From positions 192,001 to 256,000 of the IMG/VR virus record IMGVR_UViG_3300028886_000036: DNA of 64,000 bases. The stretch is one strand, 5' to 3'. A program made the translations under genes and the position numbers. Below the pieces are notes generated by a model. That model ran no database searches. It had not been told where the DNA came from and worked only from the letters and a program-made list of their open reading frames with translations. The stretch is from a virus. Taxonomy: Duplodnaviria; Caudoviricetes. Shown piece by piece: positions 9,442 through 53,119 of this stretch; positions within the stretch are counted from its first letter, which is position 1; every line of letters begins with the position of its first letter.

Positions 9442-10305
9442 TTAGATTTCATACATAAATTTTACTCCAGAAGTTCTATATAGATCTAAGCTACTTTGAA
9501 TACCAACTAGTTCTTTATCTGCATCTTTAAATATTCCGCTAAATTTACCCCACAAACAAATATCATTAATGATATACATCATTTCATCAATTTCAATTGA
9601 ACTAAAATTATACTTATCATGAAGAACTTTCTTCATGGCCGTGAAGATATTATACTTACTATCCTTATGCTTAAAAATTATATAAAACATATCATAAGAT
9701 ATATCATTAAACTTTTTTACATAGCTAAGCATCTTACTAAAATTAATTACATAGTTTCTATCAAACAACGCTTTTGTAAATTCAGGATCATTAATATAAA
9801 GATCAATATCATTATATTCAACTAAAGACCACATTGGATCGAATAAAAGATCAAACATAGAACCGCTGTAATAGTTATTATAACTATCAAGAATAAGTTT
9901 TGTATCAATATTTGTGTTCTTATATTTTTCTTGAACAAACTTCTTCTCTAATTTGTTCAGCTTCTTATCCTCAACTTTAAGATTATTTGAAAGTTTAAAT
10001 AGTTTGTTATATTTACCAAGTTGTAGTTTATCAGTGTCAACAGCATAGTTTAGGATATCATTCCAGTTATATTGATCTTTTAAGGTACTAATTACATGTT
10101 GCTCATAATTAGTACCTTTAAAACCACTTTTCTCTATTGAATGTAATCTTTCTTGCTGATATAACTTATCATAGTTTAATTTATGATCACTATAAAGATA
10201 CTTAATAGCATCAATTAGTTCTGTGTCAAAAAAATCTACTATTTCTTGAATAGGCATCTTCTTAAACGAAGACAATCTAACAAATTGGTTTAATACGTCA
10301 AGCAT
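9442..10305 (-). CDS. hypothetical protein
   Basis: 287 aa ORF coupled to the upstream gene. Confidence 0.7.
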   Translation of the reverse strand: MLDVLNQFVRLSSFKKMPIQEIVDFFDTELIDAIKYLYSDHKLNYDKLYQQERLHSIEKSGFKGTNYEQHVISTLKDQYNWNDILNYAVDTDKLQLGKYNKLFKLSNNLKVEDKKLNKLEKKFVQEKYKNTNIDTKLILDSYNNYYSGSMFDLLFDPMWSLVEYNDIDLYINDPEFTKALFDRNYVINFSKMLSYVKKFNDISYDMFYIIFKHKDSKYNIFTAMKKVLHDKYNFSSIEIDEMMYIINDICLWGKFSGIFKDADKELVGIQSSLDLYRTSGVKFMYEI

Positions 10306-12176
10306 GGCATACCTACCATAATCATACTATTATTCAAGTAATCTCCAATCTTAACATTAGCAATCTTATCAAAAATTTTATTCTTATAAACCAGAGCATA
10401 AGTAAACAGTTCAATATACGATTCCTTAAAAATCTCTTGATCCCAAGAAAAGAATTTAACAGTTTCTTCAAATCTAATAATATGCTCTGCATAAACTGTT
10501 TTATCAGTATACTGAATAAGTTCTACCAAAATGTTTCTAGCCAAAGTATACATCTGTTCATTAATCAAAGAAACTAATCCTGCATTTTTTTCCTGCATAA
10601 CTCTATTAGACAAGTATCTAGTATTTGCATAATACAACAAGAGATAAATATCAGTAACTGCAGCTGTAAGACAATTAGCTTCTTCAGAATTGAGCTTCTT
10701 AAATTCAGAGTCATTTAACACGCAGAATTTATATTGATCCTTTTCCATTAAAAGATACTTATCAATAGTTCTAATATCCTTAGGATTTCTACCAACAGTT
10801 TTAATCAACACTTCTAGATACTTCTGTCCAAGCTGCTTAAATTCATCATCATTGGAAAACATTTCATGCCCATCAACAGCACACATTTCAAGAGCTTTAT
10901 AAGCTGAAATTGACAACTCATTAAAGTCTTTATCCGGATACTTATTGCTGTATTCATAAGTTGCCGCAAATACACTAATCGAATAGATCAAAGATGTACA
11001 GGGTATACCAATCATACCCCTATTAACCAACATAACAGGGATTGCTTCTGGATTAAACACTCCAGTTTTCTCAATAGCTTTAATAATACCTTTATACTTC
11101 TTTCTTCTGTCTACCTTATAAGTTTTAGCTAGACAATTCAGAACATCCTTATTAAGATAAACTTTTCTACCTTCCTCCAGTTCAGATTCCTCAATATAAC
11201 TAATTCCCATAACTGGCTCTATCACTTTATCTTCCTCCTTGGGATACAATGTAAATTCATCAACTACATTCCACCCATCTTTATCTCCAACCATTATACC
11301 ACTTTTCTGTTCAATTAGTCTATTAGTATCTGAATGATCTATCGCTTCATCAATCACATCATCCAAATCATTGATATCAAATACAACAGATTCCTTGTTC
11401 TCAGGAATAGATGAGTTATCCACAGGCTTATCCACAATATCCACATTATTAACTTCCTCAACTAAGGAAGTCATATCAATAGTAGACAGACTATTGTTAT
11501 CCCAATCCATTTCAGTATCATAATTAGATTTAGTTTCAATGTATTCCTTGTTAGTAAGTTTTTCAAGCAATCCAGTAATTTTATCAAACTTATCAATAAC
11601 CGAATTAAGTTTGTTATACTTATTGTTAGCTTGAAACATGAATACATACATAGCAATGTTTGAGGCAAAGTTGATTAAGAGCTTACTAATGGTTCTCATC
11701 TCCGCCCTAGACAGAATCATAGTAAGAGTATATTCAGCTTTTACAAACATTACTTTATACAAAGGAATACCACGATTATCAGTAACTGGAATAAATTTAA
11801 GGCTAAGTTTATCATTCAAAACCTTTTGAAATACTACTTTGTTAGTATACTTATTGGATACATACCAGCCATTACTAGTAAGTGTTTTGTTAAAATATTC
11901 TTTAATAGAACTAGCTTCACTATACAAATCGAATACAGTGCTTAACATCGCAGCATTACTTCCATTCAAACTAATCATTTGCTTAACATCATTCACATAA
12001 CTGCTTAAGCATAGCATAACATTGTATTTGTAGATAATGTTGGTAAATACTCCAATCTCGGCATAGATACCAACTTCAGTAAACAACTTATTAGTTAACG
12101 ACCCAAAATTGAAACCAAGTTTACTTTCTTCAATATTGAACCACTCAAACGAAGTTTTTTCTTTTAGATCTGACAT
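10290..12176 (-). CDS. hypothetical origin-adjacent protein (candidate initiator); contains internal DnaA boxes
   Basis: ~630 aa ORF, likely start MSDLKE after GGAGG; three DnaA boxes at 11416-11445. Confidence 0.55.
   Translation of the reverse strand: MSDLKEKTSFEWFNIEESKLGFNFGSLTNKLFTEVGIYAEIGVFTNIIYKYNVMLCLSSYVNDVKQMISLNGSNAAMLSTVFDLYSEASSIKEYFNKTLTSNGWYVSNKYTNKVVFQKVLNDKLSLKFIPVTDNRGIPLYKVMFVKAEYTLTMILSRAEMRTISKLLINFASNIAMYVFMFQANNKYNKLNSVIDKFDKITGLLEKLTNKEYIETKSNYDTEMDWDNNSLSTIDMTSLVEEVNNVDIVDKPVDNSSIPENKESVVFDINDLDDVIDEAIDHSDTNRLIEQKSGIMVGDKDGWNVVDEFTLYPKEEDKVIEPVMGISYIEESELEEGRKVYLNKDVLNCLAKTYKVDRRKKYKGIIKAIEKTGVFNPEAIPVMLVNRGMIGIPCTSLIYSISVFAATYEYSNKYPDKDFNELSISAYKALEMCAVDGHEMFSNDDEFKQLGQKYLEVLIKTVGRNPKDIRTIDKYLLMEKDQYKFCVLNDSEFKKLNSEEANCLTAAVTDIYLLLYYANTRYLSNRVMQEKNAGLVSLINEQMYTLARNILVELIQYTDKTVYAEHIIRFEETVKFFSWDQEIFKESYIELFTYALVYKNKIFDKIANVKIGDYLNNSMIMVGMPCLTY
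11416..11445 (+). promoter_or_regulatory. intragenic DnaA-box cluster
   Basis: TTATCCACA 11416, TTATCCACA 11428, ATATCCACA 11437. Confidence 0.65.
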
Positions 12177-12194
12177 TTTAATTCCTCCCATTTA

Positions 12195-12780
12195 TTTGTC
12201 AACGTAATTGTAACACACAATTTTTATCTGTCAAGTGTCACATCAGAAAAAGCTTATCCACAAGTTATACACAGGTTATCCACAATTTGTTATTTAGTTA
12301 CAATATAGTCAGTTCTAGTTAATTTTACTTTTTTAACATAGTTATCCACATATCCACAGCTCCTACTATTACTGAAAAATAATACATACTACTACGTAGT
12401 ATGTATTATTTTTGTAAAAACTGACTTTATAGCACTATAAAATTTTTTCTCCGAAAATGGTTATACCCTAAAAAAATGCAAAGCATACTTTTACAGGGTA
12501 TAATAAAGTCGGTCGTGTTTGTTTGCTAATAACAAACACTCCCTCCACTAGATAAACTCAGTCAAAGAAACAATTTGTATCAATCCAATTAACTTTAAAC
12601 TTGAACTATTGACAGCAATGAATAACCAGTGTATAATCCAAATTAATATAAAAACATGATTAACAGATTGGTTTAAAAATGCTTATGTGTTCCGCCCAAA
12701 AACACACTTGACAAATTGACCAACTTGTGTATATAATCATGTTAGCAAGATTGTATAATCTTGTACATTAAAAAATTTGG
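12195..12780. other. putative replication origin (oriC-like)
   Basis: gene strand switch; DnaA boxes at 12254, 12265, 12276, 12342, 12350; CTACTATTACT trio-like tract; 18-bp inverted repeat 12376-12414; divergent sigma-A-type promoters. Confidence 0.8.
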
Positions 12781-12792
12781 AGGAATGCTTCA

Positions 12793-13140
12793 ATGAATGA
12801 ATATAAAATTTTGTTTGGTTTTGCAACGGTAGATTTCAATGAGAATATTGGTATTGTAATTGATGAGACTGATGATTACCTTATTCTTAAGAAGCCTTAT
12901 ACGCTTATTAAGCAGCCTACTAGTAGCGGCTCTATGAGTGTTGCGTTTGTTCCATTTATGATGTCTGCTGGAGTTGGCGACGGAAACAATGTTAAAGTCA
13001 ACAAAACTCAAATAGCTTGGTCAATGGTTGAGCCAGATATAGACGAGAATCTGGTTAATAACTACATCACACAAACCACAGGTTTAGTTGTAGCTGGTTC
13101 AGATGTTAAGTCAGCTGCATCAAAACTTTTAGTCAAATAA
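12793..13140 (+). CDS. hypothetical protein, possible Sm-like fold
   Basis: beta-rich, LKKP...VAFVPFM pattern seen in T4-like phage small proteins; GGAGG RBS. Confidence 0.45.
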   Translation: MNEYKILFGFATVDFNENIGIVIDETDDYLILKKPYTLIKQPTSSGSMSVAFVPFMMSAGVGDGNNVKVNKTQIAWSMVEPDIDENLVNNYITQTTGLVVAGSDVKSAASKLLVK

Positions 13141-38282: not shown

Positions 38283-40883
38283 ATGGCATCACCATTAACT
38301 ACCTATATTAAATGGCTATCTATCCCGGAAGATATTCCATTTCCAGAAGAATGTAAGTCATTAAATATTAAAACTATTTTGAATCTAGCAGAAGAAGATC
38401 TATTTGCTGGATTGATGATGAATCAGCTGTTCAATGACGCATATGCTTATAATTATAGCATTGAAGATATTGCTAGACTTCATAAGAAACATAATAGTAC
38501 TTATAAGTTTAATTATATTAAGCAAGTTCCTAAACTTCCTGAACCAGTTAAAAAAGAAGAGGTTAAGGAAGTCGTAGTGCATAAGAAAACTAAATATAAA
38601 AGACCTAAAGAAAAACCAGGTATTACAGAAGAAATCAACCCTGAAGAGAATCCAATGCTGGTTAATGTCTATTATGATGGGGATAATAGACAAGTTGCTT
38701 ATGTAACCAGAGTTGATAGGAAAAGGTATATTGAGATAGTCGATGACAATGTTATGATGTATTATGGTAAAGATGATTATCTTAATGTTAGTGATGCTGC
38801 TAGATTGAAAAGTGAATTGGTTTCTTATAGATACCGTAATAAAACTATTGAAAAGCATAAAGAAGAACATCCTTATGATGCAATCTATAATGTAGATCTT
38901 AATATTGCTATTCCTAAAACAGTATCTTGGAAAGAGAATCATCCTAATGCTGGTACTTATAAATTAAGGATTAACTATATTGATATTGAGTTGTATCAGG
39001 AAGGTTATGGAGTAATTGACTTCTCTGATTTGAAAACTTCAGCTAGATTAATTCCAGTTAACTTGATTACTATTTATGATAATTATGATGATAAATATTA
39101 CACTTTGATTTACAATTTGAACCGGTCAGAAATTAAACCTGAACAAATTAAAGGATATTTAGACTATAAAGATGAATGTAATTTTGATGTAAGAATTTTT
39201 GATAAAGAAACTGATTTGTTTTTGGAGTTCTTTAGATTGCTAAAAGAATTTGATCCAGATCTAGTATCTGGATGGAATAGTGACGAGTTTGACTTACCCT
39301 ATATCAAATATAGAGCTGAATTTCTTGGTATTAAGAATCCTAAATTGGCTCATAATAAAGTGTTTGGTATTGAATATAAGACTCTTACCAATAAGCACAA
39401 TGAAGAAATTACTTATTGTATTCCTAAACTTGGCTATTCGGTTGCTTTGGATTATCAAAGATGTTATAAAGAGAGAGCTTTTGGTAAAAGAGAAAACTAT
39501 AAGCTTGGTACTATTTCACAATATGAACTTGGTATTACTAAACTTGATACTGAAGATGGTATGGATAAGATCTTTAGAGAAGAACCTGAACGTTTTATTG
39601 CATACAATATTAACGACGTTCATCTGGTTAGAAAGCTTGATGAAAAACTGAAGTATATCGATTTGTGCTTTAATATTATCCAGTTCGCTAATATTTCTTG
39701 GGATAGTGTTTATACCACACTTCATATTGTTGATGGCATTCTTTATGAGTATTTGATTAAGCAATCTAAAGTAATGAAGATTGTTAATAGAGATGTTGAA
39801 AAACAACCTTTCATGGGCGCATATGTGAGAAAACCAATTAGTGGAGTACATGATTGGTTAGGTGATTTGGATCTTACATCTCTGTATCCTTATATTATGG
39901 CTAGATATAATATTAGTGCAGATACTTATGTTGGAAAACTTGATTTTGAAGATAGTAAAGAATACATTTATAACAAGGAAGGCTTTATTAATAGTAACAA
40001 GAAGATTAATCTATATCTTAGAGTAGATGGCATTGAAAAAAGATATGAGATTAGTACTAAAGGCTTCCATGATAAAATGATTAAGAATAAGTACATCATT
40101 ACTTATACTGGTACTATCTTTAAAAGGCATGAAGATAAGTTGTCTGTTTTGTATGAAATTATTCAGATGCTTATTTCTAAACGTAAAGAGTATAAGGATC
40201 TGATGAAAGATAATATTGGCGTAAATGATATGCTGGTTGATAGATATAATGGAATGCAGATGACTGTTAAAGTTATTACTAACTCTTTGTATGGAGCTCA
40301 GTCTAATAATAGATTTAGAATGTATGATTATGAAGTAGCTAGATCTATTACTACTACTGGTAGAGAAATTGCTAAAGTAGCTGCTGTAGTTGCCAATGAT
40401 CTGATTAATCAAATGATTAGAAATAAGAGTGGCAAATTTAACAGTGTTGAGATTCCTTATGATTGGGAAGAAAAATCTGATGATATTCTTAGCAATGTTG
40501 TATATGGAGATTCAGTTACTGGAGACAGTTTGATTAGAACTGGTATTGGTAATATTCCAGTTAAGGATATTTGGGAGACTCAAATGAAAGCCTATCCTGA
40601 ATTGTCTAAAACTGGTGAGATTAACACTGGTTATGTTCAAATGAATGGCAAGGAGTATATCCTGAATCCTAATATAACAATACTTGGAGTAGACGACAGT
40701 TTATATATCCCAAGATACATTATGAAACATAAAGTTAAAAAGAAACTGTATAAAATTACAACTGAATCTGGTAAGTCAGTTACTGTTACAGAAGATCATA
40801 GTCTTATTGTTTATAGAAACAATGAGAAGCTGGTTATTAAGCCAACAGAATTGATTGACACAGATAAAGTGATTGTGATATAA
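38283..40883 (+). CDS. polB: family B DNA polymerase, N-terminal part fused to the N-half of a split intein
   Basis: exo motifs DIE, GWN...FDLPY, YNIND; DLTSLYP; K...NSLYG; extein ends YGD, then SVTGDS... with VTEDHSL (intein block B), ending DKVIVI. Confidence 0.95.
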   Translation: MASPLTTYIKWLSIPEDIPFPEECKSLNIKTILNLAEEDLFAGLMMNQLFNDAYAYNYSIEDIARLHKKHNSTYKFNYIKQVPKLPEPVKKEEVKEVVVHKKTKYKRPKEKPGITEEINPEENPMLVNVYYDGDNRQVAYVTRVDRKRYIEIVDDNVMMYYGKDDYLNVSDAARLKSELVSYRYRNKTIEKHKEEHPYDAIYNVDLNIAIPKTVSWKENHPNAGTYKLRINYIDIELYQEGYGVIDFSDLKTSARLIPVNLITIYDNYDDKYYTLIYNLNRSEIKPEQIKGYLDYKDECNFDVRIFDKETDLFLEFFRLLKEFDPDLVSGWNSDEFDLPYIKYRAEFLGIKNPKLAHNKVFGIEYKTLTNKHNEEITYCIPKLGYSVALDYQRCYKERAFGKRENYKLGTISQYELGITKLDTEDGMDKIFREEPERFIAYNINDVHLVRKLDEKLKYIDLCFNIIQFANISWDSVYTTLHIVDGILYEYLIKQSKVMKIVNRDVEKQPFMGAYVRKPISGVHDWLGDLDLTSLYPYIMARYNISADTYVGKLDFEDSKEYIYNKEGFINSNKKINLYLRVDGIEKRYEISTKGFHDKMIKNKYIITYTGTIFKRHEDKLSVLYEIIQMLISKRKEYKDLMKDNIGVNDMLVDRYNGMQMTVKVITNSLYGAQSNNRFRMYDYEVARSITTTGREIAKVAAVVANDLINQMIRNKSGKFNSVEIPYDWEEKSDDILSNVVYGDSVTGDSLIRTGIGNIPVKDIWETQMKAYPELSKTGEINTGYVQMNGKEYILNPNITILGVDDSLYIPRYIMKHKVKKKLYKITTESGKSVTVTEDHSLIVYRNNEKLVIKPTELIDTDKVIVI
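40512..40883 (+). mobile_element. split intein N-fragment (123 aa, Ser1)
   Basis: block A SVTGDSLI immediately after YGD; block B TEDH. Confidence 0.9.
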
Positions 40884-40897
40884 TTTAATAGAAGGAG

Positions 40898-41473
40898 ATG
40901 TTGTTTTATATGAGTGATAGAAATATAGTCGATTTTAATGGCTTACAGACATATGATAATAATATTAAAAGATATATTAGTGAAGTTGGTAATACAAACT
41001 ATGCACCAATGTCACATACGCATTATCTTGGAGATATAGGTTTCACTCCAGATAATGGTACTATTCCAAACGATGATGTTTATAGGTTGAAAGGATTTAG
41101 AAACTGTCAAATCTTTGTCAATTACGATAGCGATAATATTAATATTGATACTGATAAATATGACTTAGCTTATATTAATGTTTCTAGAGATATTAACATT
41201 ACTTTAAGAATCGGAGCTACCGAAGGTGTGTCTCCCAAGAGTCATGCTAGATGCTTAAAGATTATTTTAAATAATGCCTATAATCATAATATTACTTGGA
41301 ACTATAGTAGTAATTTTATTTGGAGAGATAATGATGTTACTTTCTCTGATGAAGCAAATAAGGTTGATATTGTCGAACTTATTACTGCTGGATTAGATGC
41401 TAATGGAGAAGTAGCAGAAATTAATCCTACTAGTAATGTTATTTGGTATGGTAATATTTCTAAATCATATTAA
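40898..41473 (+). CDS. tail-fibre-associated-like protein
   Basis: ITW....IW.......ANKVDIV.L....WYG pattern of fibre C-terminal domains. Confidence 0.45.
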   Translation: MLFYMSDRNIVDFNGLQTYDNNIKRYISEVGNTNYAPMSHTHYLGDIGFTPDNGTIPNDDVYRLKGFRNCQIFVNYDSDNINIDTDKYDLAYINVSRDINITLRIGATEGVSPKSHARCLKIILNNAYNHNITWNYSSNFIWRDNDVTFSDEANKVDIVELITAGLDANGEVAEINPTSNVIWYGNISKSY

Positions 41474-41493
41474 TGAAAGGGATTGATTAACAA

Positions 41494-41769
41494 ATGGGAG
41501 TTAAACAAGTTTTTACAAAAAAAGAGGCTAGAGAGATTTGTAGAAGACTCGGGCTTTCTGAAATAGCTTTGAGTAATGATACTTGTATTGTTGCTCAGAA
41601 TGATAAGGGTCATATCTATAAGTTTCCTATCGGAGTTCCTGGCAAGGTAGAAGTTACTAATAAGCCAGTTGTGAATGCTGTTAAGGAAGAAAAGGTAGAA
41701 CCTGAGAAGCCAGTTAAAAGAAAGCGTGGTCGTCCACCTAAGAAAAAGAAAGTGGAGGAAACAGAATAA
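41494..41769 (+). CDS. small protein with AT-hook motif
   Basis: KRKRGRPPKKKK. Confidence 0.6.
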   Translation: MGVKQVFTKKEAREICRRLGLSEIALSNDTCIVAQNDKGHIYKFPIGVPGKVEVTNKPVVNAVKEEKVEPEKPVKRKRGRPPKKKKVEETE

Positions 41770-41786
41770 GAAAGGACTGATTCTTA

Positions 41787-42365
41787 TTGAATTCAGTATC
41801 TAAGAATATATTAGATTTACTTAAAGTTATTGCACAGAATCAGATGCAATTAGCTAAAAAAGTAGATGAGATGAACAATAAGCTTCAGGAGTTTTTTGAT
41901 GAAGCCACTACTGAACCTCCAGTAGATTTAGAAGAATTTAGTATAGAACCTGAAAGAAATCCTCCTGTTAAAAAGAAAAAGATTGACAGTAAAATGTTTG
42001 ATGAATTTGTTCTTCAAGAAAAAGAAAGAAGAACACCGAAGGGACAAGCTACTCAGGTTAAAAAGAAAACTAAAGTTACAGCAAATCCTGGCATTAATGC
42101 TAATAAGATAAGGATTATAAATGGAAGTGATGGCTCTGACATTTCAGATGAAAGTACTGTAGTTTCAGCTGATATTGATTCAATTAAACCAACTGATTCT
42201 GCTAAAGAAAAATTGAGAAAGCTAGGTATGCCACTTCCTTCATTATCTAATGCTGCTCCTGAATTAGCAGATATTGAAAAGGCAAAGATTTTAGAGGCAG
42301 AAATTGCTAGAGAACAAAAGAAAGCTGATTTAAAGAAACCTAAAGAAGAAGTAAAAGAAAAATAA
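41787..42365 (+). CDS. hypothetical charged protein
   Basis: ORF track, RBS. Confidence 0.6.
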   Translation: MNSVSKNILDLLKVIAQNQMQLAKKVDEMNNKLQEFFDEATTEPPVDLEEFSIEPERNPPVKKKKIDSKMFDEFVLQEKERRTPKGQATQVKKKTKVTANPGINANKIRIINGSDGSDISDESTVVSADIDSIKPTDSAKEKLRKLGMPLPSLSNAAPELADIEKAKILEAEIAREQKKADLKKPKEEVKEK

Positions 42366-42470
42366 GGAAGTGTTATTTTGAAATTGGTATTGGAACACTA
42401 TGCTATGTTTATATGCATTTGGTGTGCTGAATATATGATTGCAAATCTTATTTAGAAAGGGAGTATTTTA

Positions 42471-42797
42471 GTGGCAACTAAAGTTTTAACAGATACTGGT
42501 CATTTTGATATAATGGATTATACTGTTACTAAGTTTTATGGTAAAGATATTTATAAGCCTTATAAAGAGTATGGTGTTAAAGCATATTTCGAGGCATTGA
42601 AAGAAGCTATTAAAGGCATTGCTTCGCCGCCTTCATATATTTTGGTATTTGATAATAAAAAGTATACCTGCAAGCTGTTTGTTAATCAGAAAGAAGTTAA
42701 ACCAAAGAATCCCGGTGAGCTTCAGAAGAAGATTGATAAATATAAAAGGATGAAGTTTAAAGAGAATACCAAGGAGGATAATAGTAATGAAGGTTAG
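42471..42797 (+). CDS. hypothetical protein
   Basis: ORF track, RBS. Confidence 0.6.
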   Translation: MATKVLTDTGHFDIMDYTVTKFYGKDIYKPYKEYGVKAYFEALKEAIKGIASPPSYILVFDNKKYTCKLFVNQKEVKPKNPGELQKKIDKYKRMKFKENTKEDNSNEG

Positions 42798-43458
42798 ACT
42801 TATTGCCGAAACTAATAACCCAGAATATGTTGTTACATTGGCTGCGGCTACTTGTTATAGTGATAAAGAATACACTGAGCTTTATGATAAGTGTAACGAT
42901 AAAAAGTATCAGGAGACCCTTATTACTAAACTTCTTTCTAGTGGGCATGAAAGTCCTTTTGAGCATGCTTGTTTTACATTCTTTATTGAAGGAGTATCTA
43001 GATCTATGACTCACCAATTGGTAAGACATAGGATTGCATCATATTCCCAGCGATCTCAGAGATATACTAAAATGAAACCTTCAGAATTTAATATCCCAGA
43101 GAGTATTAGTTCTGATCCAGAAAAGAAGAAAGCTTTTGAAGAACATCTTAAAGATACATTCCAGCTCTATGATGAATTGATTGCTGGTGGAGTTCCTAAA
43201 GAAGATGCTAGAGAGATTCTTCCTAATGCAACTCAAACTACTATTGTAATGACTATGAATCTTAGAGAGCTTAGACACTTTATGGAATTGAGAATGTGTA
43301 ATAGAGCTTCTACAGAAATTAGAGCAGTTGCTGATGAGGTTTATTCTATTCTTAAAATGTATCATCCTTTACTGGTTATCGGTGCAGGACCCAAATGCTG
43401 GTATGGTAAATGCACTGAAGAACATAAAACTAAAGATTGCCCTAAAAAGAAAATTTAA
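42787..43458 (+). CDS. thyX: flavin-dependent thymidylate synthase
   Basis: GHESPFEH, THQLVRHRIASYSQRSQRY, KEDAR.ILP, MNLREL.HF..LR. Confidence 0.97.
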   Translation: MKVRLIAETNNPEYVVTLAAATCYSDKEYTELYDKCNDKKYQETLITKLLSSGHESPFEHACFTFFIEGVSRSMTHQLVRHRIASYSQRSQRYTKMKPSEFNIPESISSDPEKKKAFEEHLKDTFQLYDELIAGGVPKEDAREILPNATQTTIVMTMNLRELRHFMELRMCNRASTEIRAVADEVYSILKMYHPLLVIGAGPKCWYGKCTEEHKTKDCPKKKI

Positions 43459-43504
43459 TAAACAAAAAGAAACTACCGTAGTGATACGGTAGTTTCTTTT
43501 TTAA

Positions 43505-43942
43505 TTATGAGTTCACATGGATAAATCCAAGTAAGTCGCCAATATTAAATTCATTTAAGATAGCTAACGCCTTATCATAGAGATCCTTTTTTATTTTTTC
43601 ATAGTCAAACTTAACTTGACTCTTAATGAATGCTTGATTAGGATCTTTCAAAATAGTTGAATAGAACAAAGATGACATTAGATCTTTAAAGCTATAGAAA
43701 ACTTGGTAACAACCATCTTCTCTAATAAATAGATAGATGTCATAGTATCTATTAACTACAGCCTCCCAAGGTACCTGCCCATATTTAAAGGTAATACCGT
43801 TTGTTAAACAGTATTCTTTAAACAGGTCAAGTGACACAAACTGAAGTACTTTAACTTTTTCAGGAATAAACGCCTTAGCATCCTGGAGTTTTTCAATCTT
43901 CATCCAAAGATTATAGTAATAATTCTGCTCTACAGTTTCCAT
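43505..43942 (-). CDS. hypothetical protein
   Basis: GGAGG RBS. Confidence 0.65.
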   Translation of the reverse strand: METVEQNYYYNLWMKIEKLQDAKAFIPEKVKVLQFVSLDLFKEYCLTNGITFKYGQVPWEAVVNRYYDIYLFIREDGCYQVFYSFKDLMSSLFYSTILKDPNQAFIKSQVKFDYEKIKKDLYDKALAILNEFNIGDLLGFIHVNS

Positions 43943-43953
43943 TAAAATTCCTC

Positions 43954-44265
43954 CTAATCAATATTAGATGGTCTATCTCCACACATCTTTATAAAGGTAT
44001 GTGCTATCTCACAAATATCATACTTATCGTCATCTTTAACAAACTTATTATTGTGATATGTACAACTATAACAGTCGTTACAAATAAAATCTTTAAGCAT
44101 AGTTAATCCCAAGGTTCTAATAAATTTTGCTTTGCCAGCACATACTTCATCAACTGTATGATCATGACTAGCATTTATAGGACAGCGGCTATTACATTTA
44201 GTATAAGACAAACATCTATTTGTAAATTGTATACTATAGTATAATACTACTGCAAAATGATTCAT
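43954..44265 (-). CDS. Cys-rich small protein (family member 3)
   Basis: two Cys clusters. Confidence 0.6.
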   Translation of the reverse strand: MNHFAVVLYYSIQFTNRCLSYTKCNSRCPINASHDHTVDEVCAGKAKFIRTLGLTMLKDFICNDCYSCTYHNNKFVKDDDKYDICEIAHTFIKMCGDRPSNID

Positions 44266-44474
44266 TCTTTATCCTCAAAAGACATATCCATAAAATATTC
44301 ATCTTCATTGTCAGTACAGACTGCTATAGCGCCCTGATGAAGATATCCTAAAATCGCCATAAGATTATTAACATCATTCTCGTCAATTCGTATTTCAATA
44401 GGAGTATACTCTTTGAACACAAATTTTATAGTTTTCATACCGTTCCTCCATATCTCAACTTTTTTATAATACAC
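44262..44474 (-). CDS. small hypothetical protein
   Basis: ORF track. Confidence 0.5.
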   Translation of the reverse strand: MYYKKVEIWRNGMKTIKFVFKEYTPIEIRIDENDVNNLMAILGYLHQGAIAVCTDNEDEYFMDMSFEDKE

Positions 44475-44769
44475 CGTTACCTTTCATTTCAGAATATTTT
44501 ACTGCTAATATATTAGTAGAACACGATCCTCTCCCTTCCCATATTACATGTTGTTTGTATTCACAAGATATACAATTTTTATGTTGTGAACAAAATCCCC
44601 TGGCAGTTACAATAATCTTATTACTGTCATGAAATTTAGAAGATACTGATACATATCTATATAATGTGCAACAATCTCCCTTTGATTTATACCGACAACT
44701 ATTGCAGCATACTTGAGTCATACAATAATTTATTAAAACAATATTTGTAGCGAGATCTAATTTTCTCAT
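44464..44769 (-). CDS. Cys-rich small protein (family member 2)
   Basis: DL..NI.L.NYCM...C..C shared with 44821. Confidence 0.65.
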   Translation of the reverse strand: MRKLDLATNIVLINYCMTQVCCNSCRYKSKGDCCTLYRYVSVSSKFHDSNKIIVTARGFCSQHKNCISCEYKQHVIWEGRGSCSTNILAVKYSEMKGNGVL

Positions 44770-44820
44770 AATTTCACCTCTTATTATACCACAAACACAT
44801 CTAATTGCTAAAGCACTTAT

Positions 44821-45135
44821 TTACTTCAATTTCATCCCTTTGAGAAGTACATATCTTAAAGCAGTAATACTAGCAGCACAATATTCCTCCTTGCCTCCGG
44901 TAGCTAATATACAGTCATACTTACAACATCCAGAACTACTATCACAAATCTCTAGTAGTTTTGATATAATATTCTCATCAAACACCTCTTTAGCTCCATC
45001 TAATGCCCATCTAGTTATATTACACACTTGAGGTTCATTCTCATCTAAAAACTTACATTTATAACAATACTCAACCCCCATACAATAATTAGCCAAGCAT
45101 ATATTTAGTACCAAATCATATCTTACACGCTTCAT
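44821..45135 (-). CDS. Cys-rich small protein (family member 1)
   Basis: class-I motif at 45178; paralog of 44464. Confidence 0.65.
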   Translation of the reverse strand: MKRVRYDLVLNICLANYCMGVEYCYKCKFLDENEPQVCNITRWALDGAKEVFDENIISKLLEICDSSSGCCKYDCILATGGKEEYCAASITALRYVLLKGMKLK

Positions 45136-45199
45136 AAGACCACCTCTTCTAAAATATAAACTAAATGAACAGTGTAATAATATACTTATAAATTTTTAC

Positions 45200-45227
45200 T
45201 TGACAAGATGAAATAATCGTGTATAAT
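45200..45227 (+). promoter_or_regulatory. sigma-A/70-type promoter of the polymerase C-half
   Basis: TTGACA-N16-TATAAT. Confidence 0.7.
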
Positions 45228-45249
45228 AACAGTGTGAGGTGAGAAAAAG

Positions 45250-45369
45250 ATGAAGCTTGAACGGATTAAATCAGTTGAAGTTATAGACCCAAATTATGAT
45301 GTAGATGTTTATGACTTTGAACTGCCAGTCGAACATAACTTCTTTGCTAATGATATTCTAGTGCATAAT
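45250..45369 (+). mobile_element. split intein C-fragment (40 aa, His-Asn, Thr+1)
   Basis: blocks F/G: VYD...HNFFAN.ILVHN|T. Confidence 0.92.
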
Positions 45370-46239
45370 ACTGATTCAATCTTTACCAAGTATGGAGATG
45401 CATTAAAAGCTATCTATGGAGATGAATATGATGATATCTCCGATACTGATAAGATTAGTAAAGTTATTGAATTGAATGAGTCTGTAGCACAGTACATTAA
45501 CAATGTAATGATACCAGATTTGCTAGAAAAACACAATACCTCTGCTACAGAATCTAGTGCTAAGAAGTTTAACTTTAACTTTAAACAGGAACTAGTTATT
45601 AGAAAAGCATTGTTTATTGAAGCTAAAAAGAAGTATGCAACTTGGCTGGTTTCAAAAGAAGGTAAACCTCTTGATAAGATTAATATTACTGGTCTAGAAA
45701 TTGTTAGATCTGATTTCCCGAAATTTAGTAGGGATATGATGAGAAATGTAGTTAATGATATTCTGAAAAAGGGTATCACTAAAGAAGATCTAATTATTAT
45801 GTTATCTCAGTATAAAGATCAGTATATGGAACTACTTCAAACTGGATCTACAGATGCTGCTATACCTAGTTCTTGGAATAAAGAGAACTATGCTAGTGTA
45901 CCTAGAGCTGTTAAATCGATGTTAATCTACAATGCTATCTATGGCAATACATTTAAGATACTGGATAGAGGTTATAGATTTGACTTGGAAAATATTAATA
46001 TAAGTCAGTTTGATGAGACAGTTAGAAAACGCTTGACAGATTTAGTTGAGAGTGGTAAAATGGGAAAAGAAGGTAAGTTGGATTGCATCACTATCCCATC
46101 AGGTAGTGTATTAGATACAAGTAAGTTTACCATTGATTACAACAAGATGGTTGGATTTGCAATCGATGATAGACTGAAAAATTTCTGTGAGATATTTGGT
46201 ATCAGTATTGAGGATCCTGATGCAATAAGTTGGATCTAA
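45250..46239 (+). CDS. polB: family B DNA polymerase, C-terminal part fused to the C-half of a split intein
   Basis: 40-aa IntC (VYDFEL...HNFFANDILVHN) then TDSIF, KKKYA, GLEIVRSD. Confidence 0.95.
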   Translation: MKLERIKSVEVIDPNYDVDVYDFELPVEHNFFANDILVHNTDSIFTKYGDALKAIYGDEYDDISDTDKISKVIELNESVAQYINNVMIPDLLEKHNTSATESSAKKFNFNFKQELVIRKALFIEAKKKYATWLVSKEGKPLDKINITGLEIVRSDFPKFSRDMMRNVVNDILKKGITKEDLIIMLSQYKDQYMELLQTGSTDAAIPSSWNKENYASVPRAVKSMLIYNAIYGNTFKILDRGYRFDLENINISQFDETVRKRLTDLVESGKMGKEGKLDCITIPSGSVLDTSKFTIDYNKMVGFAIDDRLKNFCEIFGISIEDPDAISWI

Positions 46240-47425: not shown

Positions 47426-47507
47426 CTAAAAAGCTGGTATAATTCTTATAGCACAATATAAGAGCTATACCAGCTCTTTTTATATCTCTAGATTGGGAGT
47501 GGTAATT

Positions 47508-49163
47508 ATGGATAATATTTTGGGAGAACTTAGACAGATTCTGGATAATAATAGAGAGTTTATGGGTAGTGAATTTTTGTCAGTGTATTCTAGATTGGTA
47601 TTTGGTAAAAAGACTGATCCTACAGTATTGAAGTCAGCATCATATCTCTGTAAAGAATTTAAATATTTTATTGAGAGAGTAAAAGATAAACAGAATACTA
47701 TTGGAGTTACTCTTATTACTTTGGATTCTTTACAGCAGAAGATGTTACAGTATGTTAGTAAGAGTTTTAATAATAAAAGTAAAGTAATTGATGGAGATGT
47801 AGCTCTAGAGAAATATAAGAATTTTATTAATAACGATGTATCAATCAGTTATGAAGATAAGCAGAAAGCATTAAGTATTACCACTCAAGAAGATCTTCAG
47901 TTGGATGTAGTGAATGAAATCCAAACTAGTTTTTCTAATAAGAAATGTATGTTCAATTCATTAGGTCAGTATGAGATACTTAAGACTTTTATTAATAGTG
48001 GTTATAATGAATGTGAAAACTGGGGAGAATTTGTAGATAAGTTTCATAAGTTGTTAGGTACAGCACTTTTGGATGTACAAGCTTATACTTATGATGCGGC
48101 TAATTCATTAGATCTATCTAGTATGACTATTGAAGATGTAGTTAATAATAATAATCAAGTCACCAAGATTAGTACTGGGTATAATATGTTTGATAAAGTA
48201 CTTCAGGGTGGTTTTCAGAATCAAAGAGTGTATATGTTTGGTGGTATTTCTGGTGGTGGTAAATCTCTAGTATTGGTTAATTTTGCATTTAGAGCGAAGT
48301 TGTTTTTGGATAAGAAATATCCAAAAGAAGAAAGATCTAAACATACTGTATTGTATATTTCATTAGAGAATAGCACTAAAGAAACTGGTGATAGATTTAT
48401 TTGTTGTGCATTGGGTCAATCTATTGCTCAAATTGAAAATGGGTTTAGTAGTTTGAAAGATCAGTATAACTACAGCATTAAAGAAGTATTTAATCCAGAT
48501 AATGCTAGAATCAATATCACATATAGACCAGCTAAAAGTATCGATATCTATGATATCCAAACTATTATTACCGATATTGAAAGAAGTACAAAAAGTAAAG
48601 TAGATATTTTGTTTGTGGATTATGCAGATAAAATGTCTGCAGTGAATGCGTCTAAATCAGATCAAGAATGGAGAGATCTTGGTTATATTGTTGATGAATT
48701 GAAATCATTATCTATTTCATTGGATATCCCGGTAGTTACAGTTACACAGCTTAATAGAGAAACTTATAAGGGGAAAGGCAAAGGTAATGAGTTCAGTATT
48801 AATGGTGGTAATATCTCTGGTTCAATTAGAAAAAGAGAGAATGTTGACTTCTTTACTATCTTCAACTTCAAAGCCAAAGAAGAAGAAGAAATCAGTATGA
48901 ATGATAATCCTGATGAAGTCTTTGATGATAGAAAAGATGTTATGAAACCAATTGAACCAGTATATTGTATAGTTGATAAAAACAGAATGGGCCCAGATAA
49001 TCTGAAGTTCCAAGTATATATTGATTATCCAACTTACAGAATGCTTAATTACCCAAGTGAGAATATTAGTACTAGTTTCTATCATAATGGCAGTATTGAA
49101 AAAGTTATGATTGATGAAGATGAAAGTAAGCTTGATGAAAAATTAAGAGATACAATGCTTTAA
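47508..49163 (+). CDS. replicative helicase (DnaB/gp41-like)
   Basis: STGY..FD..L.GG, GGISGGGKS, ISLEN, VDYAD, TVTQLNR, KNR.G. Confidence 0.92.
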   Translation: MDNILGELRQILDNNREFMGSEFLSVYSRLVFGKKTDPTVLKSASYLCKEFKYFIERVKDKQNTIGVTLITLDSLQQKMLQYVSKSFNNKSKVIDGDVALEKYKNFINNDVSISYEDKQKALSITTQEDLQLDVVNEIQTSFSNKKCMFNSLGQYEILKTFINSGYNECENWGEFVDKFHKLLGTALLDVQAYTYDAANSLDLSSMTIEDVVNNNNQVTKISTGYNMFDKVLQGGFQNQRVYMFGGISGGGKSLVLVNFAFRAKLFLDKKYPKEERSKHTVLYISLENSTKETGDRFICCALGQSIAQIENGFSSLKDQYNYSIKEVFNPDNARINITYRPAKSIDIYDIQTIITDIERSTKSKVDILFVDYADKMSAVNASKSDQEWRDLGYIVDELKSLSISLDIPVVTVTQLNRETYKGKGKGNEFSINGGNISGSIRKRENVDFFTIFNFKAKEEEEISMNDNPDEVFDDRKDVMKPIEPVYCIVDKNRMGPDNLKFQVYIDYPTYRMLNYPSENISTSFYHNGSIEKVMIDEDESKLDEKLRDTML

Positions 49164-49988: not shown

Positions 49989-50291
49989 TTATAACCAAAG
50001 AGTAAATTCTAAGTCATCTAACCTATAGATAATTTTACCTCTAGTTTGTGCTCCCTTTATCTTTTTTAGTTCAGTTTCTTCTTTTACTACGACATTATAC
50101 TTTCCAGATATTTCTTCTTTAATCAGATCAGCATTAATTATAGACATATGGAAAGTACGATAATACCATACTTTTATATACTTGTTTTCATCTTCAAGAC
50201 AAAATAATGTAAACCAATCTTTATATTTACCACATATAACTGGAATTTCGTGCATATGTCGATTACCCTGAGTTAACCCTAAACAACTCAT
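49989..50291 (-). CDS. hypothetical protein (inverted cassette)
   Basis: GGAGG RBS; class-I motif at 50326. Confidence 0.6.
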   Translation of the reverse strand: MSCLGLTQGNRHMHEIPVICGKYKDWFTLFCLEDENKYIKVWYYRTFHMSIINADLIKEEISGKYNVVVKEETELKKIKGAQTRGKIIYRLDDLEFTLWL

Positions 50292-50402
50292 AACAAACAC
50301 CTCCAAAGAGATTAAGATACTTTCATTATATACTTATGAATAAAGCATAGACTAAATAAAAAGAAGACCCTAAACTTCAGGGCCTTCTTTTTAATATTAT
50401 AG

Positions 50403-50597
50403 TTACTTCTCGTTCTTAACGCGTTCGATACGTAAGCCTTTCAAGCAATCCCACAATTTCGGGGAATACTCTGATTTATAGCTACTTACGAAAATAGCGT
50501 GCCGGATGCAATATATGATTGCTTCCGGCACCCGAAACAATCCGCAGCCAACAACGTGTGCTGCGGACAACCCGCAATCGATACTAACGTTAAACAT
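50403..50597 (-). CDS. small hypothetical protein (64 aa) behind structured leader B
   Basis: GGAGGT RBS then MFNVSID. Confidence 0.6.
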   Translation of the reverse strand: MFNVSIDCGLSAAHVVGCGLFRVPEAIIYCIRHAIFVSSYKSEYSPKLWDCLKGLRIERVKNEK

Positions 50598-51856: not shown

Positions 51857-52402
51857 TTAGCAAACTTTTACCTCCTTCTTTCTGGCGATCTTGCATGCCA
51901 GAGAACACCCCCAAAACAACATAAGGGCCACAGTAAGAAGTGTAGGTCTAATACTATTAACAGTCGCCCCAGTATATAACCACGTTGGGATTACTGACGC
52001 CAGAATATTCCAACTGCTGTGATTAATGTACCAGAAAACTTTCATACGCTTATTGCTATAATGGTAATAGCACAACCCAGATGCCGCGTGAAGCAGCATC
52101 ATTGGCAGTCTAAATACCATAAACAACCCGACTCCAAACCACGCGATCTGGTAGGAGTAGAGAAAAGCCTCGAAGAAAGCATAAACTACCGCTTCTTTCT
52201 TGCTGCTGCAGTGCCTCATCTTAAAGGATTCTTCTAACCATGGAACCCAAAGGCACATCACTACGGATGTTACAATTCCAAACGCACTCATTGCTACGTA
52301 ATAATGATTATTGATGCTATATACGCAGCCCCCTACAGCAACCCCCGCTACGATCAACGGCTTCCACATGGTGCAAATGAAATCTTTGAGATACTGTTTC
52401 AT
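51857..52402 (-). CDS. multi-pass membrane protein behind a structured leader
   Basis: AGGAGG RBS before MKQYLK; several hydrophobic segments; class-I motif at 52509. Confidence 0.7.
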   Translation of the reverse strand: MKQYLKDFICTMWKPLIVAGVAVGGCVYSINNHYYVAMSAFGIVTSVVMCLWVPWLEESFKMRHCSSKKEAVVYAFFEAFLYSYQIAWFGVGLFMVFRLPMMLLHAASGLCYYHYSNKRMKVFWYINHSSWNILASVIPTWLYTGATVNSIRPTLLTVALMLFWGCSLACKIARKKEVKVC

Positions 52403-52629
52403 AGTATCCCTCCTACTCCACCTGAGCAAATGCCAGGCCGACCCACTGGTCTGCACCTTGGCTAGACACCGACCGATTCGGTGTGCTCTAATAGTAGAGT
52501 CACTTGCGTAATATATATACAACTAAAATTAAGTTCTAGCAAAAAGAAAAGTTCATTTCGTATACAGATAATAATTATTTTTGAACTATTCTTTTTTATT
52601 TCAGTCAAACATCCCTTAATTTAAATTAA

Positions 52630-52821
52630 CTACTTTTCATCTGGATATAATTCACCAGCTACAAATACTACAGTTTGATATCCAGTACTATTGATAACTA
52701 TAAATGATCTGCCATCAAAAGTATAAGGATATCCACTATTAGAACTATCACTAACAGTATTGTTATGTCTGTTATCATCTTTGTTCACCTTATAAAAGAT
52801 GGTATCTCTGTAACTACTCAT
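52630..52821 (-). CDS. small hypothetical protein
   Basis: coupled to the upstream ORF. Confidence 0.5.
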   Translation of the reverse strand: MSSYRDTIFYKVNKDDNRHNNTVSDSSNSGYPYTFDGRSFIVINSTGYQTVVFVAGELYPDEK

Positions 52822-53119
52822 CTTCTTCATCCTCTTCAGGAGAACAAATCGTGATAGCTCCAATTGAATCTAATGGGACTATGTACTTATCATTTTCCAT
52901 TATAAAGTCTTCATCAGACTCATCTGGAAAATAGATATTGATCTCAAGATGAAGTTCACCAATTAAATTAGTGATAACTTCTCTCTTGGTATACATACCC
53001 ATTTTCTTTAATTCAGAGTATTCATCTTTAGAAAGCCTTATAATGCTTTCTTTCTGATGATTGCTCTCAATCAAAAACCTATTGTCCGCAAAGTTGTAGT
53101 AGTTGTAATTATAGTCCAT
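52814..53119 (-). CDS. hypothetical protein
   Basis: GAGGAGG RBS; structured leader 53165-53266. Confidence 0.65.
   Translation of the reverse strand: MDYNYNYYNFADNRFLIESNHQKESIIRLSKDEYSELKKMGMYTKREVITNLIGELHLEINIYFPDESDEDFIMENDKYIVPLDSIGAITICSPEEDEEDE

Follow-up and report, generated by a model that had tools for sequence, protein, structure and literature searches.

The window analysed here, a stretch of 64,000 nucleotides, comprises positions 192,001-256,000 of the phage record IMGVR_UViG_3300028886_000036, which stems from the rumen, is 275,466 bp long and has 32% GC. The element in question is a cluster of DnaA boxes that is followed by DnaA-trios and in this resembles the basal unwinding system (BUS) of the chromosomal origin (oriC) of Firmicutes. 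Positions are those of the window unless they are called genome positions. The cluster lies where a 69-kb block with 74 minus-strand genes ends, and beyond it transcription runs rightward, in agreement with an initial annotation of the same DNA that had placed it at a flip of gene orientation and had proposed a phage origin there. Its description of the sequence was borne out: the letters of 12341-12373 read as it had given them, three DnaA boxes with a period of 11 bp start at 12254, 12265 and 12276, three more boxes at 11416-11445 within the neighbouring gene encode VDIVDKPVDN, a perfect 18-bp inverted repeat is present, albeit 1 nt away from where it had been located, and more inverted repeats follow at 12461-12503 and 12515-12539.

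The DnaA-box cluster

Five boxes of the cluster are exact copies of TTATCCACA, with starts at 11416, 11428, 12254, 12276 and 12342, and three have one mismatch (ATATCCACA at 11437 and 12350; TTATACACA at 12265, a match to the relaxed consensus TTWTNCACA); every one of the eight is on the + strand. The initial annotation had made its proposal depend on the box not being equally frequent genome-wide, and indeed five of the eight exact copies in the genome (about 3.7 are expected, both strands together) lie within 935 bp, for which a Poisson scan gives about 2e-7. When boxes with up to one mismatch are counted, the 1-kb interval from genome position 203416 holds nine of them, where the average over the genome is 0.43 per kb and the other intervals have four at most. 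The box clustering is far beyond chance. In the distal array (Table 1), the box centres are 88, 77 and 66 bp away from the centre of the proximal box. Within 12150-12800, no repeat family other than the DnaA boxes has three or more copies, and the repeat analysis of this segment found no iterons in the intergenic spacer apart from them. Minus-strand near-boxes at about 12619-12636 and about 12722-12737 were rejected, as they overlap extended -10 elements (TGTATAAT resembles TGTGNATAA).

The intragenic boxes sit in a disordered and poorly conserved linker of the neighbouring 628-aa protein. VD[NK] motifs are present in two to four copies, even multiplied, in relatives that are at least 76% identical, whereas those with 68% or 35-37% identity have lost them. 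To judge from these sequences, the intragenic boxes are a lineage-specific accessory outside the conserved core.

Table 1. Features of the locus and of the replication genes to its right (window coordinates)
Feature	Position	Strand	Description
628-aa gene	10290..12176	-	predicted N-terminal PUR-alpha/Whirly-like domain (aa 11-179), disordered acidic linker, helical C-terminal domain
Intragenic box trio	11416..11445	+	TTATCCACA, TTATCCACA, ATATCCACA; codons for VDIVDKPVDN, aa 245-254
Leftward sigma-70-type promoter of the 628-aa gene	12207..12234	-	TTGACA, 16 nt, TG-TACAAT; 11/12
Distal DnaA-box array	12254..12284	+	TTATCCACA, TTATACACA, TTATCCACA; starts 11 bp apart
Proximal box pair	12342..12358	+	9-mer TTATCCACA abutted by 8-mer TATCCACA (12351-12358)
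GC-rich spacer	12359..12362		GCTC, 4 nt; makes 12 bp from upstream box to first trio
DnaA-trios	12363..12374	-	top CTA CTA TTA CTG (CTACTATTACTG); bottom 3'-GAT GAT AAT GAC-5'
AT-rich perfect 18-bp inverted repeat	12375..12413		arms 12375-12392 and 12396-12413, 3-nt loop; right after trios
Two perfect sigma-70-type promoters	12609-12637, 12708-12737	+	12/12; rightward, away from module
Family-B DNA polymerase, T4 gp43 type, split	38283..46239 (38283-40883, 45250-46239)	+	27-31% identity to T4-type gp43
ThyX	42787-43458		thymidylate synthase; between the two polymerase pieces
DnaB-family replicative helicase	47493..49163	+	DnaB_C at aa 226-501, E 2.4e-21

A module that resembles the unwinding system of oriC

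The proximal box pair, the spacer and the trios form one contiguous string, TTATCCACA / TATCCACA / GCTC / CTACTATTACTG, at 12342-12374. In Bacillus subtilis 168 the BUS reads TTATCCACA / AATCCACA (box 6/7) / GGCC / CTACTATTACTT..., with a spacer of 12 between box and trio (PMC8287927; the supplementary tables of this paper, Pelliciari 2021, print the BUS as bottom strand, 3'-5', and were complemented for the comparison). The two modules are identical in 29 of 32 nt, including the first 11 nt of the trios, and the layout of 9 + 8 + 4 as well as the 12-bp spacer are the same, so that the order of the B. subtilis unwinding module, which the initial annotation had recognised in the phage, matches the published tables exactly. 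The same layout is found in the BUS tables for Listeria, S. aureus, C. acetobutylicum and C. botulinum, and the spacers of Firmicute BUS are likewise 4 nt long (GGCC, CGCG, CGTG, GAGG; PMC8287927). Also the GAT-type trios are on the same strand and run in the same direction as in bacterial oriC, and the DNA beyond them is AT-rich, though no outlier in this AT-rich genome. The distal array, phased at 66-88 bp upstream, has its counterpart in B. subtilis incC, where boxes 6/7 and trios are joined by the distal boxes 1-3 (Richardson 2016 and 2019; Pelliciari 2021 and 2023). In incC, a set of distal boxes in helical phase, which works through looping, is required as well (Richardson 2019, PMC6669920).

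According to the search criteria of Pelliciari 2021 (PMC8287927), a BUS has a box with no more than two mismatches, with or without a second box, then a spacer that does not exceed 16 bp (peak at 10-13) and at least three trios with a central A. These can be compared with the phage and with its relative G001, a complete record of 284,119 bp of which the loci L011 and L255-L269 were used. In the phage, the box at 12342-12350 has no mismatch to TTATCCACA, and the abutting TATCCACA is a second co-oriented box of the optional kind (within 3 bp, up to four mismatches). The spacer is 12 bp long in the phage and 14 bp in the relative, where 10-13 bp are usual and 16 bp are the maximum, and it is followed by four consecutive trios in the phage, each with a central A and with the preferred GAT next to the box, and by three in the relative. 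Helically phased distal boxes are found at 66/77/88 bp in the phage and at 65/77/89 bp in the relative. For strand separation, the upstream box alone is strictly required, and three trios are the stated minimum (Pelliciari 2021).

The exact variant of the module (17-mer, 4 nt, CTA) is present at at least 120 bacterial loci when one genome is taken per species, and these include Bacillaceae, Lachnospiraceae and other Clostridia; among the matches listed, CTA stands at trio 2 in 60 of 121 sites and at trio 3 in 50 of 121. In all five bacterial genomes that were checked, the element is placed between dnaA and dnaN, and side by side the phage sequence 12254-12420 is indistinguishable from such a bacterial dnaA-dnaN spacer. 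There are nevertheless differences to the bacterial systems: the phage module lies between divergent phage genes and not between dnaA and dnaN, it has only four trios that are then followed by a perfect 18-bp palindrome, there are extra boxes within a coding region, and the polymerase and probably also the helicase are encoded by the phage. As the genome is that of a phage, without any DnaA_C match, and the neighbours are phage ORFs (open reading frames), the locus does not stand beside dnaA and dnaN on a cellular chromosome, and the element would work like an oriC, yet it is not a chromosomal oriC.

The inverted repeat that follows the trios folds as single-stranded DNA with -15.1 kcal/mol (z -10). 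At the same relative place in G001 there is a perfect 18-bp inverted repeat of unrelated sequence (L011 3520-3565; -19.3 kcal/mol, z -6); the structure is conserved between both phages, but the sequence is not. The repeat could be the DNA that is melted first, it could form a cruciform or, once the origin is open, a hairpin in the single strand, or it could serve as an insulating bidirectional terminator.

Strand skew and conservation at the site

The raw cumulative GC skew of the whole genome has its minimum at 12724, inside the intergenic region, where an inflection had been expected. The raw skew alone was rejected as evidence because the 69-kb block of minus-strand genes ends there, and the skew that was used is that of each gene at third codon positions (GC3), regressed on gene orientation, with all pairs of origin and terminus scanned in 2.5-kb steps (free two-breakpoint). 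For the phage, this corrected scan has its best origin bin at genome position 205,000, refined to 203,250-206,750, with the cluster (204,254-204,374) inside it, and the residual variance goes down by 15.6%. In the relative, the raw minimum (50,887) is about 400-500 bp apart from the cluster (50,067-50,457), and the corrected scan places the origin at 52,250-53,000, with 50,000 being just 1.4 points worse, and the terminus near-antipodal at about 182,500; the reduction is 31.6%, and the arm effect of 0.144 comes near the orientation effect of 0.187. On the coarse grid, the reductions of 0.128 (phage) and 0.295 (relative) are larger than any seen in 40 permutations, where the highest values were 0.076 and 0.119. 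The coding-strand GC3 skew, on either strand of both genomes, lies at 0.22-0.34 for genes that run with the forks from the cluster and at 0.035-0.10 for head-on genes. Local read-through transcription fails as an explanation, because the long + strand blocks in the left arm of the relative lose the skew. The pattern is the signature of bidirectional replication from the cluster site, in line with the initial proposal, with the corrected switch within about 2 kb of the cluster in the relative.

The comparison at the DNA level covers this one diverged lineage, in which the neighbouring 218-aa protein is 71% identical and the flanking 628-aa protein 37%, and eight further relatives (P0002-P0014, 35-87% identity) were compared at the protein level. 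G001 has 11 exact boxes, five of which crowd into 314 bp inside the syntenic divergent gap. When the spacers of the two phages are aligned, a convincing match is found at the module alone, that is the triple box array, about 55 bp, the proximal box, CTACTA(C/T)TACT and an A-run, while the rest of the spacer has diverged. The distal array of L011 has a spacing of 12 bp, CTACTACTA is retained at the homologous site, and the trios are GAT GAT GAT. Since trios are needed for unwinding and not for simple binding, their conservation speaks for an unwinding role.

The likeness to a bacterial dnaA-dnaN spacer also makes horizontal capture a plausible source of the module, and one could think of a captured piece of a host oriC, or of a chance look-alike, that has no function for the phage. 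This is hardly credible, as the module has kept its position in a lineage with a 37%-identical flanking protein while the spacer around it diverged, the flanks hold no remnant of dnaA or dnaN, and a chance look-alike is ruled out by the clustering statistics.

Proposed origin firing and the possible role of host DnaA

It is thus our favoured reading, and a probable one, that 12254-12413 is the main origin of the phage from which replication proceeds bidirectionally, a copy of the oriC BUS that is opened by the DnaA of the host. DnaA-ATP of the host would bind the three phased distal boxes and the proximal pair, oligomerise from the proximal pair over the 4-nt GC spacer onto the bottom-strand trios, and by engaging the trios melt the adjoining AT-rich palindrome. 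A replicative helicase, either the DnaB-family protein of the phage or that of the host, would be loaded next, and the T4-type polymerase of the phage would copy the genome both ways. Strong promoters that fire outward on both sides may add negative supercoiling and thereby aid the opening. DnaA may also be enriched locally by the intragenic boxes, which lie about 900 bp further left, and amplified phage copies would soak up DnaA as a side effect. Such a titration is possible, but it leaves the conserved trios unexplained.

Several points weigh against an origin of this kind. The conservation case comes from a single diverged lineage at the DNA level, and in this lineage the second box at the trio site has decayed, an intact box pair roughly 370 bp further left lacks trios, and the best skew bin is about 2 kb off the cluster. 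Four trios in the phage and three in the relative are at the low end of the bacterial range. The site is a boundary of gene classes and at the same time the main orientation switch, and the residual skew could come partly from gene-class differences. At the 95th percentile of instability, the 100 bp that begin at 12375 belong to the least stable 5% of a genome that is AT-rich as a whole (32% GC), and the tract is no outlier. A permissive BUS scan (box with up to two mismatches) gives nine matches per genome compared to two to three in shuffles; because it is unspecific in AT-rich genomes, it was set aside and not used as evidence, and only the zero-mismatch match inside the cluster was counted. 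A host initiator would, moreover, have to hand over to a T4-type replisome. The phage furthermore owns two RNA polymerases, and a shielding compartment is conceivable; a comparison of the phiKZ chimallin with the genome had no match, and this search was uninformative.

A T4-like replisome of its own had been attributed to the phage from the beginning, and a gp43-like family-B polymerase, a DnaB-family helicase and an ATP-dependent ligase are indeed encoded right of the cluster, as is an SF2 helicase. By its sequence, the DnaB-family protein is a candidate for the helicase that would be loaded once the origin is open. Genome searches for DnaA_C, DnaB_2/DnaD and IstB/DnaC-DnaI had no match, and a search for T4 gp59_C had none either, with a control that likewise remained without a match, so that this one is uninformative. 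A replisome without a visible initiator leaves a gap that a DnaA-opened origin would fill. In uracil-DNA phages, DnaA boxes would be chemically altered. The ThyX gene between the two polymerase pieces argues that this AR9-promoter-like phage makes thymine DNA and not uracil DNA, and the boxes would then be chemically normal.

The protein encoded by the 628-aa gene has no Pfam or PHROG match. The structure prediction that had been suggested for it yields a model with a mean pLDDT (predicted local distance difference test) of 64.7, and with 70-80 in the N-terminal domain, which appears as a PUR-alpha/Whirly-like fold. In this predicted fold, tandem beta-beta-beta-beta-alpha repeats (aa 11-179) superpose on repeats I-II of human PURA (Z 12.3, root-mean-square deviation 3.2 A, 136 of 144 residues aligned), and Whirly proteins follow with Z 7-8. 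The PUR/Whirly fold binds single-stranded DNA or RNA, and by its model the 628-aa protein could help at the origin or handle RNA. A ferritin/R2-like identity of the helical C-terminal domain was rejected, as Z is about 5 and thus below the chance level for helical bundles. The predicted architecture recalls ChmC, an early Whirly-fold protein of nucleus-forming jumbo phages that has a disordered acidic tail and prefers RNA (10.1101/2023.09.22.559000); there is no sequence similarity between phiKZ gp67 (ChmC) and the 628-aa protein.

The strongest alternative is that there is an origin at this site, but that it is fired by an R-loop like at oriF/oriG of T4 or by an unrecognised phage factor, and that DnaA is just an auxiliary enhancer or timing input. 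The T4-like replisome, the strong promoters that flank the site next to DNA that may melt easily, the conserved 18-bp hairpin after the trios and a PUR/Whirly-fold protein (as predicted) encoded next door would all agree with this, and the skew supports an origin and is silent on the initiator. The T4 origins oriF and oriG have no DnaA boxes or trios and need a transcript that enters the unwinding element, whereas the strong promoters of the phage point away from it: in a scan for sigma-70-type promoters, which leaves phage-specific promoters aside, the best one that points into the AT-rich tract reaches 9/12 (minus strand, 12529-12500). The exact BUS spacing and conserved trios would be needless for an enhancer, and there are no iterons that a Rep-type protein could use. 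Firing by such another route is therefore unlikely. Also P1 oriR and iteron plasmids are mobile elements that recruit host DnaA via consensus boxes at the origin, and in these, replication depends on the Rep protein and the iterons of the element, with DnaA as a helper. In the phage, no iterons, Rep or partition genes were found, genome searches detected no initiator family, and the unwinding element is of the chromosomal type.

DnaA is also a known transcription factor, and the cluster might bind it without any origin role, either as a datA-like sink that stops host initiation or as an operator on the divergent early promoters. Eight boxes on an amplifying genome would indeed titrate DnaA, the -35 hexamer of the leftward promoter is 20 bp away from the distal boxes, and the intragenic boxes add sites without an unwinding element. 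Binding, however, needs neither trios nor a fixed 12-bp spacer, and these are conserved, whereas the closeness of promoter and boxes is not, as three extra genes intervene in L011. In addition, a sink or operator leaves the orientation-corrected skew switch in two genomes unexplained, and we consider it quite unlikely.

Of the 20 perfect sigma-70 promoters in the genome (12/12; TTGACA, 16-18 nt, TATAAT), 15 are on the + strand of window positions 12609-47443 (genome 204,609-239,415), and the large block right of the cluster seems to be read by the host polymerase despite the two RNA polymerases that the phage itself encodes.

Parallels in other phages

All T5-like phages keep about eight DnaA boxes, grouped in pairs with 3 bp between the partners and surrounded by inverted repeats, in a region that is presumed not to be the origin and that adjoins pre-early genes with strong host promoters (10.1101/866236). 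The phage described here has a similar number of host-type boxes, a large noncoding region rich in inverted repeats and strong host-type early promoters, and the cluster could thus be a stop for injection or a membrane anchor, at which membrane-bound DnaA catches the boxes so that the first segment with host-type early promoters is expressed first. The T5-like phages would be the precedent for such conserved non-origin boxes (10.1101/866236), 15 perfect host-type promoters begin beside the cluster, and the boxes are 3 bp apart in the relative (2 bp in the phage). But in T5 the boxes are paired inside inverted repeats of the terminal repeat and have no trios, whereas the boxes of the phage are all in one direction, outside the inverted-repeat arms, BUS-spaced and at the skew origin. 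The trios and the skew switch have no place in the T5 model, which is itself a conjecture, and an anchor of this type is very improbable here.

The 17-mer of the box pair recurs in more than 118 contigs of IMG/VR; 9 of 93 non-redundant sites have CTACTA or TACTAC no more than 14 nt behind it, compared to 0 of 93 on the mirrored side. Among the flanking genes tested at these sites, dnaA and dnaN were absent and one was a DnaB helicase. Modules that resemble the BUS appear to be widespread in phage contigs, as far as sequences can tell. In the searchable literature, no paper was found that describes a phage origin of the BUS type by experiment. For the Bacillus megaphage G, an 'oriC' with boxes, spacer and DnaA-trio has been predicted by Ori-Finder (PMC12484599), which is a printed mention of this combination in a giant Firmicute phage, but as software output at default settings without analysis of conservation, skew or spacing and without experiment. 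Distinctive in the present case are a jumbo phage with a replisome and RNA polymerases of its own, the exact Firmicute layout and a skew that was found in both genomes.

Giant phages that bring enzymes of their own for transcription and replication are commonly regarded as nearly independent of the host. That a phage which encodes a polymerase, a helicase, a ligase and two RNA polymerases outsources only the melting of the origin to host DnaA, and that it is one case of a widespread class of phage origins, is a view for and against which we see about equal weight. If it is true, a giant phage would be unexpectedly dependent on its host, as it could not take the first step without host DnaA. 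Phage replication would then be gated by the DnaA-ATP state and the growth state of the host and by its DnaA regulators, amplifying phage DNA would starve the host origin of DnaA and thus have a silencing of this origin built in, and bacteria would have a possible point of defence. A natural box-trio module of about 160 bp that works outside the dnaA-dnaN context would also be a clean test bed for the BUS model and for the handover of a DnaA bubble to a non-cognate T4-type helicase and polymerase. Since the module shares 29 of 32 nt with its B. subtilis counterpart, DnaA from this bacterium could be used directly, and so could the strand-separation assay that has been published.

Nine unrelated viral contigs with a GC content of 51-67% (L020, L021, L050, L057, L064, L077, L086, L087, L129) have TTATCCACATATCCACA, a GC spacer of 2-5 nt and CTACTA-type runs; in L086 there are six consecutive TAC repeats, and L064 has the element behind a gene for a DnaB-type helicase.

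As to the phage itself, megablast and tblastn found no close relatives among GenBank phages, and locus searches that used one protein at a time as query, the 628-aa or the 480-aa neighbour, had no matches. In alignment-based searches, viral contigs gave solely the one known relative lineage and metagenome contigs gave none. Pfam and PHROGs had almost no matches for ten neighbouring ORFs, Rfam had only meaningless miRNA-hairpin matches in the intergenic region, and a protein atlas search gave nothing that exceeded chance. Searches of the genome for a tyrosine integrase and for ParB_N were both empty, and neither thus points to a plasmid-prophage life style of this lytic-type jumbo phage. In the relative, L011 4130-5080 holds three small ORFs between the 657-aa anchor gene and the boxes, which are insertion-like, have no counterpart in the window and seem GC-richer than their surroundings, with composition judged by eye. 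Both ends of the phage record (G000 1-100 and 275,367-275,466) fall in the same short-period repeat (ATATCTCCACCCATACC-like); the record is probably a circular or permuted map without true ends, the assembly of which broke inside a repetitive gene.

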